Source: a virus (Duplodnaviria > Caudoviricetes). Taken from it: a DNA stretch of 60,471 nucleotides. The translations under genes and the position numbers were made by a program. Of this stretch, positions 13,925 to 14,016 are shown piece after piece. The stretch's first letter is position 1, and each line of letters opens with the position of its first letter. Below the pieces are notes generated by a model, which saw nothing but the letters and a program-made list of their open reading frames with translations, searched no databases and was not told where the DNA came from. The stretch lies in IMG/VR virus record IMGVR_UViG_3300028025_003339, positions 1 to 60,471 of that record; one strand, written 5' to 3'.

Positions 13925-14016
13925 GGGGAGGTGGGTGAGTGGTCTAAACCAGCAACCTCCGAAGTTGTCATTGGATCTAAAAAAGTCAATCGAGGGTCCG
14001 AATCCCTTTCTCCCCG
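13925..14016 (+). tRNA. Class II tRNA: Ser-type body with CCG (Arg) anticodon
   Basis: Acceptor GGGGAGG/TCTCCCC + G73; D arm GGTGAGTGGTCTAAACC; anticodon stem GCAAC/GTTGT with loop CT-CCG-AA; 23-nt variable region (ATTGG/TCAAT stem); T arm GAGGG-TCCGAAT-CCCTT; CCA not encoded. Confidence 0.85.

Follow-up and report, generated by a model that had tools for sequence, protein, structure and literature searches.

Bacterial arginine identity is taught as requiring A20, and to our knowledge long variable arms are known only in leucine, serine, bacterial tyrosine and selenocysteine (Sec) tRNAs. Phage tRNAs matched to late-gene codon use are familiar, as is the bldA tRNA-Leu(UAA) of Streptomyces, a rare-codon switch, and in the Codetta screen CGG is reportedly the codon most often reassigned in low-GC bacteria. 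The bacterial allo-tRNAs of Mukai et al. (2017) are long-armed, serine-type tRNAs with non-serine anticodons, including those of arginine, which inserted serine at sense codons in E. coli, and the same study reports tRNA-Ser of the 8/4 type (acceptor/T stem) in phages (PMC5389517). A second precedent is tRNAPyl(CCG), which was charged with arginine in Mycoplasma capricolum, indicating that arginyl-tRNA synthetase (ArgRS) can capture a foreign CCG tRNA (PMC4652775). Here, we examine a tRNA gene at positions 13925-14016 of IMGVR_UViG_3300028025_003339, a 60,471-base virus record (Caudoviricetes; GC content 31-37%) that was analysed whole and is referred to as the window, in which a serine-type body carries the arginine anticodon CCG. 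There is good support for a tRNA with a serine-type body that is maintained by selection, accessory in distribution and used to decode CGG in late genes. Our favoured reading of its cargo, which rests on sequence comparisons and is held at a probability of roughly 0.45, is that it is a functional decoder delivering mainly arginine, which would amount to an identity switch. The gene and its parts are as follows.

13925..14016, plus strand: whole gene, a class II tRNA of the 7/5 type with G73 (ARAGORN, Rfam, covariation in 10 family sequences)
13959..13961, plus strand: anticodon CCG (C34 C35 G36), with C32 U33 before and A37 A38 after (sequence, ARAGORN, Rfam alignment)
13969..13991, plus strand: variable region, consisting of C44, the stem AUUGG(A)/(G)UCAAU with an A-rich loop, and C48 (sequence)
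13997..14003, plus strand: T-loop UCCGAAU, with C55 (at 13998) where U55 is usual (sequence, Rfam alignment)

The gene specifies a 92-nt class II tRNA with a 7/5 cloverleaf. ARAGORN reports it as the single tRNA in the window (13925-14017, plus strand, anticodon ccg), and the Rfam tRNA model RF00005 scores 47.7 bits over 13925-14016 against a gathering score of 29 (E 4.1e-07); the score above the curated threshold, the ARAGORN call and covariation all place it in that family. The acceptor stem, GGGGAGG/UCUCCCC, includes G1-C72, G2-C71 and G7.U66 and is followed by G73. CCA is not encoded in the gene, the bases after 14016 being CAC. The D arm is of the serine kind, with G18 G19 U20 C20a U20b A21, a G13-A22 mismatch and a 3-bp stem, and the 21-nt variable arm has a 5-bp AU-rich stem flanked by single C44 and C48 residues. 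In a thermodynamic fold, the minimum-energy structure is not the cloverleaf (z -1.93), which is common for tRNAs and is counted neither way. A first-pass annotation, made from the letters alone, had listed the long variable arm, G73, G1-C72/G2-C71, U20, CCG, A37 and the T-loop, and the sequence, ARAGORN and the Rfam alignment agree with it on every structural point. The unusual C55 is not peculiar to the CCG family, since a tRNA-Ser(GCU) in an unrelated 128-kb viral contig (L262) has the same T-loop UCCGAAU.

When compared with established tRNA classes, the gene has the long arm with serine-type spacing, the 20a/20b D loop, G73 and G2-C71 of tRNA-Ser, but its anticodon, CCG in every family member, is not a serine anticodon (NGA or GCU). 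The determinants reported for tRNA-Arg are C35, G36 or U36, and A or G at 73, and G73 blocks the leucyl- and tyrosyl-tRNA synthetases (PMC9976931). Here, C35, G36 and G73 are present, whereas U20 stands in place of A20 and a 21-nt arm in place of the short loop of a class I tRNA; the tRNA also decodes a codon that the genome uses as arginine, which tells of the meaning of the codon and not of the cargo of the tRNA. The 7-bp acceptor and 5-bp T stem are not the 8/4 or 9/3 of allo-tRNAs, and tRNA-Sec differs in its stems (8/5 rather than 7/5), in the 3-bp D stem found here and in its anticodon (UCA rather than CCG). Likewise, this is not a stop-suppressor tRNA of the kind found in recoded phages, as the anticodon is CCG and the open reading frames (ORFs) are long, covering 93% of the window under translation table 11.

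The tRNA belongs to a conserved family. A pattern combining the serine-type D loop with the CCG loop matched 54 viral stretches, 30 of which hold a family tRNA (27 of 51 new loci plus L001-L003), the rest being non-tRNA, and a tighter pattern matched nine metagenome contigs, all of them with family members. As defined here, the family comprises at least 30 viral and 9 metagenome contigs from one clade of lake phages (~250-330 kb), and all carrier contigs are syntenic with the window. In cellular genome contigs, the D-loop and CCG pattern matched 107 stretches, which is about the chance expectation that we estimate for 16 fixed bases; 80 of these stretches were examined, and none proved to be a tRNA at the matching site. 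In the GenBank phage collection, neither the region nor the tRNA has a close counterpart.

Among the 10 distinct family sequences, standard pairs occupy 95.8% of pair cells, compared with 32-60% when the partners are slid. Both partners have changed in five pairs, three of them in the divergent L329 (3-70, 4-69 and 5-68) and the other two being 30-40 and 52-62. This pairing and these double changes argue against a chance cloverleaf and point to a real tRNA under selection. CCG, C55, G73 and G2-C71 are invariant in all 10 sequences, G1-C72 is broken in one row only (L023), and the variable-arm stem keeps its pairing in 96.7% of cells, with a loop that varies by indels. Between relatives with 85-93% DNA identity, the tRNA differs by a single nucleotide, compared with 7-15% in the flanks. 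The first-pass annotation had considered that the gene might be a singleton or degenerating, or that its homologs might carry serine anticodons. None of these ideas fits the family, which spans dozens of contigs with compensatory changes and keeps CCG in every member, its nearest outgroups being tRNA-Ser(GCU). A decaying or neutral remnant of a tRNA-Ser could account for C55, for the AU-rich arm with its large loop and for an A27.C43 mismatch in the commonest variant. This explanation is scarcely credible given the single-nucleotide divergence between relatives, the compensatory changes, the identity of the tRNA across diverged backbones and the Rfam score of 47.7 bits.

The serine character of the body is evident from several comparisons. 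Searching with the D arm and anticodon stem while leaving the anticodon free recovers three near-identical CCG tRNAs in related viral contigs. It also recovers, from an unrelated viral contig of 77 kb (G004), a tRNA-Ser(GCU) whose D arm and anticodon stem are identical. Of 401 sampled Bacteroidota genomes, 68 contain matches, the best of which are tRNA-Ser(GCU) with 90-93% identity over the first 29 nt, and the one-nucleotide spacers (C44/C48) equal those of Bacteroidota tRNA-Ser(GCU); in the Pseudomonadota, the 5' half of the tRNA matches in 9 of 301 sampled genomes. On anticodon-masked profile hidden Markov models built from 495 distinct tRNAs of the fetched loci, the family scores 42-49 bits as Ser and at most 10.3, 9.6 and 5.2 bits as Tyr, Leu and Arg, respectively, a Ser margin inflated by a training set enriched in tRNAs fetched by the same D-arm motif. 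The Bacteroidota tRNA-Arg(CCG), on the other hand, is a 74-nt class I tRNA with A20, A73 and unrelated acceptor, D and T arms (all nine fetched examples have A20, which the search pattern itself demanded). From the serine matches, the profile scores and the unrelated arms of the canonical tRNA-Arg(CCG), we assign the body to the tRNA-Ser(GCU) type. The earlier description of a serine-type body without the arginine determinant A20 is therefore upheld, both by the masked profiles and by a D arm and anticodon stem equal to those of a phage tRNA-Ser(GCU), with U20 in the tRNA. In the commonest variant of the family (type B, e.g. L025), positions 26-36, comprising the 5' strand of the anticodon arm and the loop, read GACAGCCUCCG. 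The listed Bacteroidota tRNA-Arg(CCG) matches have this same arm more often than any other (11 of 45), which we treat as a lead only, whereas the type A anticodon arm of the window equals the arm of the phage tRNA-Ser(GCU) instead. Convergence or an arm swap could explain the likeness of the type B arm.

With such a body, the tRNA might be charged by seryl-tRNA synthetase (SerRS) and insert serine at CGG as a missense tRNA, with harm to the host or a competitor as a by-product or as the purpose. On this view, CGG would have become more frequent in late genes only through relief of stalling at a poorly read codon, at sites where the change from arginine to serine is tolerated. We regard this as somewhat unlikely. 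The body, its profile scores and its homology to the tRNA-Ser(GCU) of G004 and of Bacteroidota are all in line with it, as are the maintained long arm, the absence of A20 and the anticodon independence of serine identity (PMC9976931); moreover, an engineered yeast tRNA-Ser(CCG) was only mildly toxic because CGG is rare (PMC6125640).

The distribution of the tRNA is that of an accessory gene. Among 80 fetched loci with the conserved upstream-neighbour protein, the tRNA is present in 28 and absent from 35 (with 1.6-6 kb of sequence downstream), and 17 are too short to tell. In the 35 tRNA-less loci, the flanking ORFs lie ~70 nt apart with no tRNA remnant. On a tree of the flanking 2 kb, tRNA presence needs five state changes, at least four of which are forced by supported branches, compared with a shuffled mean of 20. 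An identical tRNA is found in backbones whose neighbour protein is only ~77% identical, which suggests inter-phage transfer, strong selection or both. Its clean absence from 35 of the 63 syntenic relatives with room for it marks the tRNA as accessory, and such patchiness, which resembles that of weapon or counter-defence genes, counts in favour of a tRNA that misinserts serine.

The meaning of CGG in these phages can be read from how the codon evolves. The window contains nine in-frame CGG codons among 18,757 codons (5170, 5977, 7487, 8992, 9601, 18492, 22575, 30154 and 43753). In close-relative orthologs, CGG is kept in 12 cells and replaced by AGA or AGG in 9/9 changes, and in the reciprocal-best orthologs of four records, 15/19 CGG changes lead to arginine codons; the remaining four give V (2), K (1) or Q (1), and Ser never appears. 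This profile resembles those of CGA, CGT and CGC and is unlike that of true serine codons. Among the 67 cells of tRNA-less orthologs that align with CGG, 33 are R and not one is S. One of the sites is particularly well conserved.

7487..7489, plus strand: CGG codon, residue 25 of the virion-type protein encoded at 7415-8521, a conserved basic position

Residue 25 is arginine in all three paralogs and is R in 48, K in 11, A in 1 and S in 1 of 61 homologs; its codon is CGG in 9 of 15 distinct orthologs and CGT or AGA in the others. In the paralog alignment, 8992 stands opposite Trp and Arg and 9601 opposite Gly and Ala, both at variable positions, and 7487 aligns with Arg in both paralogs. The codon notes of the first-pass annotation, which placed 7487 and 8992 against Arg and 9601 against Gly/Ala, hold. 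The paralogs are three tandem proteins of ~370 aa at 6257-9645 (phrog_1417, function unknown) with 62-64% mutual identity, which hold three of the nine window CGG codons and have 547 homologs in the protein collection at E <=1e-5. All in all, CGG keeps its arginine meaning in the phage genes, with no reassignment, and the earlier judgement that full reassignment is unlikely is reinforced by the changes to arginine codons (9/9 and 15/19, with none to Ser). Serine insertion is difficult to reconcile with a codon that gives way to AGA, AGG or CGT but in no case to a serine codon (0/28 changes, 0/67 cells) and that is the majority codon at a site with R or K in 59/61 homologs, although two of the three paralog CGG sites lie at variable positions and CGG sites are perhaps less conserved as Arg, as serine insertion would predict.

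CGG use also tracks the tRNA, both along the genome and between genomes. Within records, CGG codons are concentrated in the run of co-oriented genes at whose end the tRNA lies.

135..16449, plus strand: end of the co-oriented virion/tail-fibre block, in which the tRNA lies, holding 5/9 of the window CGG codons (5170, 5977, 7487, 8992, 9601)

Split-corrected permutation p values for this clustering are 0.0005 in G005, 0.0045 in G007, 0.038 in G006 and 0.015 in the window, and in the pre-fixed strand run containing the tRNA, the CGG odds ratio (OR) is 3.5-7.2. The GC content at third codon positions is slightly higher inside the block in G007, whereas in the other three records it is equal to or lower than that of the rest. 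For the comparison between records, the genes of six carrier and five tRNA-less records were sorted as homologs of the tail-fibre block (block-like) or other. In block-like genes, CGG accounts for 69 of 2894 arginine codons in carriers (1.5-4.2% per record) and 6 of 1697 in tRNA-less records (0-0.8%; OR 6.9, p 1e-8), whereas the other genes show no such difference (15 of 3301 and 14 of 2741, respectively; OR 0.89). Of the CGN box, CGG makes up 19.2% in carrier blocks, 2.8% in tRNA-less blocks, and 2.9% and 2.4% in other genes, while the G-ending codons of the remaining four-fold boxes make up 5-18%. The tRNA-less record G719, which is 97% complete, has 23 tRNAs with no reader of CGG among them and nine CGG codons in 99,692, none in the block. 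In four of the five tRNA-less records, which are 16-30% complete, the tRNA is absent at the syntenic site and may exist elsewhere in the genome. These record and box comparisons indicate that CGG is strongly avoided without the tRNA and is at or above the ordinary G-ending level with it. CGG use is thus coupled to the tRNA, and we infer that the tRNA is the cause.

This coupling bears directly on serine insertion, which should select against CGG at arginine sites in co-expressed genes, yet CGG is ~7-fold enriched there, and in carrier blocks it makes up more of its box than G-ending codons do of the other four-fold boxes. Of the earlier proposal that the tRNA inserts serine, mistranslating host proteins, what remains is that the identity rules allow it; the greater number of CGG codons at arginine positions in the co-expressed genes of carriers speaks against it. 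The position in a late block is also ill suited to early sabotage of the host.

The mechanism that we propose is that a class II body of the tRNA-Ser(GCU) type acquired the anticodon CCG. Lying at the end of the virion/tail-fibre block, the tRNA would be transcribed with the block and would serve as the phage's own reader of an otherwise avoided CGG in late genes. Host ArgRS would charge it through C35-G36 despite U20 and the long arm. That the cargo is mainly arginine is suggested by the occurrence of CGG at arginine positions, by its evolution as an arginine codon and by its greater frequency where the tRNA is present, and it is because we weigh these comparative codon data above the identity rules that we lean to arginine.

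A number of observations weigh against this reading. Serine identity resides in the long arm and acceptor irrespective of the anticodon, and A20 is the chief arginine determinant in E. coli (PMC9976931). The tRNA has U20, whereas the phage's tRNA-Arg(ACG) and tRNA-Arg(UCU) have A20, and its whole body is of the serine type (42-49 bits as Ser versus at most 5.2 as Arg), with the arm and spacers of a true tRNA-Ser(GCU). A body of this kind would be expected to resist ArgRS, because natural tRNA-Ser(GCU), with C35 and U36, must escape that enzyme. The variable-arm stem stays paired across the family, which fits use by SerRS, and since tRNA-Arg(ACG) is one base change from tRNA-Arg(CCG), the serine body needs explaining. 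As to the codons, the mean fraction of R at CGG sites is 0.55, compared with 0.70-0.77 at other arginine codons, so that CGG sites may be somewhat less conserved as Arg, in a test of low power (20 genome-specific sites amounting to ~9 distinct ones). The carrier and tRNA-less records are related rather than independent, with 6/6 carriers in one 30-row clade. In the 13 kb beside the tRNA, CGG counts are 53 of 2897 versus 32 of 3830, an excess due mostly to three sites shared by descent. Finally, two local concentrations of CGG are unexplained: 10 codons at 158-176 kb in G006, outside the block, and 22 among 400 arginine codons in the tRNA-less G721 (64.8 kb), in genes without a homolog in the reference records.

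Dual identity would reconcile the body with the codon data. In this case, SerRS, recognising the body, and ArgRS, recognising C35-G36, would both charge the tRNA, rendering CGG ambiguous between arginine and serine in late proteins. The tRNA does carry determinants of both systems, and CGG sites are a mixture of conserved arginine and variable positions. However, a steady serine fraction at conserved basic sites should be counter-selected in very large populations, and CGG is instead over-represented, making this alternative rather improbable. A more elaborate version, in which deliberate charging with both amino acids, confined to the late phase, makes CGG ambiguous solely in tail-fibre and other virion proteins and yields mixed receptor-binding variants in each burst, and in which the tRNA could also act as a timing switch in the manner of a rare-codon tRNA, strikes us as distinctly speculative.

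In its genomic setting, the tRNA is closely flanked on both sides.

13197..13886, plus strand: upstream neighbour, a Methyltransf_24-like ORF; in tRNA-less relatives the next ORF follows ~70 nt on
14048..14932, plus strand: downstream neighbour, a signal-peptide protein of no family; joined to the 3' part of the type B tRNA in metatranscriptome contigs

Homologous blocks in G005, G006 and G007 encode tail-fibre proteins. Contigs of two metatranscriptome runs (X16 and X17) run from the 3' part of a type B tRNA into the downstream ORF; the metatranscriptome contigs (four sets) cover only parts of the stretch, show neither ends, strand nor CCA addition, and could stem from DNA carry-over. The tRNA is probably co-transcribed with the tail-fibre block. 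A promoter scan gave three promoter-like sites versus 3.4 expected, one of them ending 10 nt before the tRNA, which is no evidence of a promoter, and a terminator scan found none.

Carrier records extend to 251 kb at a CheckV completeness of 75%, which indicates that the carriers are jumbo phages and that the window is probably a fragment of such a genome. In each of 14 DNA runs from lake water or freshwater, more than half of the sampled words of the stretch are present. In G005, a cluster of 21-22 ordinary tRNAs, including tRNA-Arg(ACG) and (UCU), both with A20, and tRNA-Ser(GCU) and (UGA), lies ~200 kb from the solitary CCG tRNA. No synthetase with PF00587 or PF00750 was found in five carrier records (28-75% complete). 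A Bacteroidota host can be suggested only weakly, because this D arm is shared with Pseudomonadota and with numerous tRNA-Ser genes of unrelated phages. A canonical tRNA-Arg(CCG) is present in at least 44 of 201 sampled Bacteroidota genomes (strict pattern, with three matches for the reversed control), a sample that is not the host of the phage.

The surroundings also bear on a non-decoding role, whether as a decoy for a tRNA-cutting defence, a seryl donor to a non-ribosomal enzyme, a regulatory RNA or a processing signal in late transcripts. Such a role would be compatible with the uncommon C55, with the isolation of the tRNA from the distant 22-tRNA cluster, with the patchy distribution and with the radical-SAM, methyltransferase and sugar-pathway genes nearby. 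Nevertheless, the anticodon and its canonical 7-nt loop are invariant while the stems vary, and the coupling to CGG would go unexplained. In L039 and L057, the tRNA still lies beside the homolog of the ORF at 15979 although the radical-SAM block is absent. Of 35 carrier-only ORFs, the 10 scanned include none that is tRNA-related and no enzyme or partner that uses aminoacyl-tRNA (they are a PD-(D/E)XK nuclease, C1q-like, Asp/Asn hydroxylase-like, NifU and phosphoesterase proteins, or of no family); the other 25 were not scanned. We therefore consider a non-decoding role very unlikely. The nuclease decoy, which had been put forward from the letters alone, has nothing in its favour, and it leaves the invariant anticodon and the codon coupling without explanation.

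Several other features of these phages were noted. On the minus strand at 16444-27472, the window carries a sugar/glycan pathway cluster that encodes an NAD-dependent epimerase, GT2 glycosyltransferases, a methyltransferase-GT2 fusion, a short-chain dehydrogenase, an AMP-binding enzyme, a hexapeptide acyltransferase, a DegT-type aminotransferase and further glycosyltransferases. In G005, an RNA polymerase sigma-factor-like protein at 174112-174924 (L226:14112-14924; phrog_351, E 9e-53) contains one CGG. The tail-fibre region of the same record encodes, at 210600-212690 and with homologs in G007 and G002, a run of small C1q-like proteins with CGG codons, which is present only in tRNA-carrying records among those compared.

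Long arms and unexpected anticodons are also seen in other viral contigs. The tRNA called 'Leu(gag)' by ARAGORN in the viral contig L234 is a serine-type class II tRNA with the same D-arm motif, G73 and an encoded CCA, and is possibly a second phage mismatch between body and anticodon. Contigs of huge phages and, in one case, a binned 7-kb contig contain 84-93-nt tRNAs with extra-long variable regions and class I anticodons: Thr tgt (L241, L263, L272, L287 and L289), His gtg (L241, L272 and L278), Lys ttt (L241 and L272, with a 93-nt 'Lys ttt' in L142), Pro tgg (L270 and L277), Asn gtt (L286) and Ile tat (L252 and L275). Because their acceptor ends resemble those of the named amino acid, long arms on tRNAs outside class II may be common in large phages.

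If the CCG tRNA carries arginine, it would be a natural class II tRNA-Arg and a live identity change in which the anticodon overrides the body. If it carries serine, it would be a phage missense tRNA that misreads a codon enriched in the late genes of the same phage, and so a case of programmed ambiguous decoding in a virus. Either outcome bears on codon capture and reassignment, and the system lends itself to testing: the RNA is only 92 nt long, two synthetases are concerned, and phages with and without the tRNA exist in nature that differ 7-fold in codon use. Literature searches confined to open-access main texts found no natural serine-type tRNA with CCG and no phage-encoded sense-codon missense tRNA, the sole match for spellings of 'tRNASerCCG' being an in vitro synthetic-code paper.

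Among known systems, the tRNA lacks a defining feature of each class that it approaches, namely the anticodon of tRNA-Ser, the A20 and class I body of tRNA-Arg and the stem lengths of allo-tRNAs. With the allo-tRNAs it shares a serine body with a foreign anticodon, but theirs are 8/4 or 9/3 rather than 7/5, and the main text of the paper describing them mentions neither 'CCG' nor codon coupling to a phage gene block (PMC5389517). The yeast tRNA-Ser(CAG), through which CUG is read as serine or ambiguously, likewise combines a serine body with a foreign anticodon and possible dual charging; it is, however, a eukaryotic chromosomal gene with genome-wide reassignment, whereas phage CGG still acts as an arginine codon (PMC6041473, PMC4428446). 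In tRNAPyl(CCG) of M. capricolum (Krishnakumar et al., 2013), a foreign body was made an arginine acceptor by CCG in a low-GC organism that barely uses CGG, but that system was engineered, and the competing enzyme was the slow pyrrolysyl-tRNA synthetase rather than SerRS (PMC4652775). The canonical tRNA-Arg(CCG) of Bacteroidota has the anticodon in common and, in its most frequent listed form, positions 26-36 of the type B variant, but it is a 74-nt class I tRNA with A20 and A73. Finally, ordinary phage tRNAs and bldA resemble the CCG tRNA in pairing a rare-codon tRNA with genes that depend on it, but their bodies match their anticodons.

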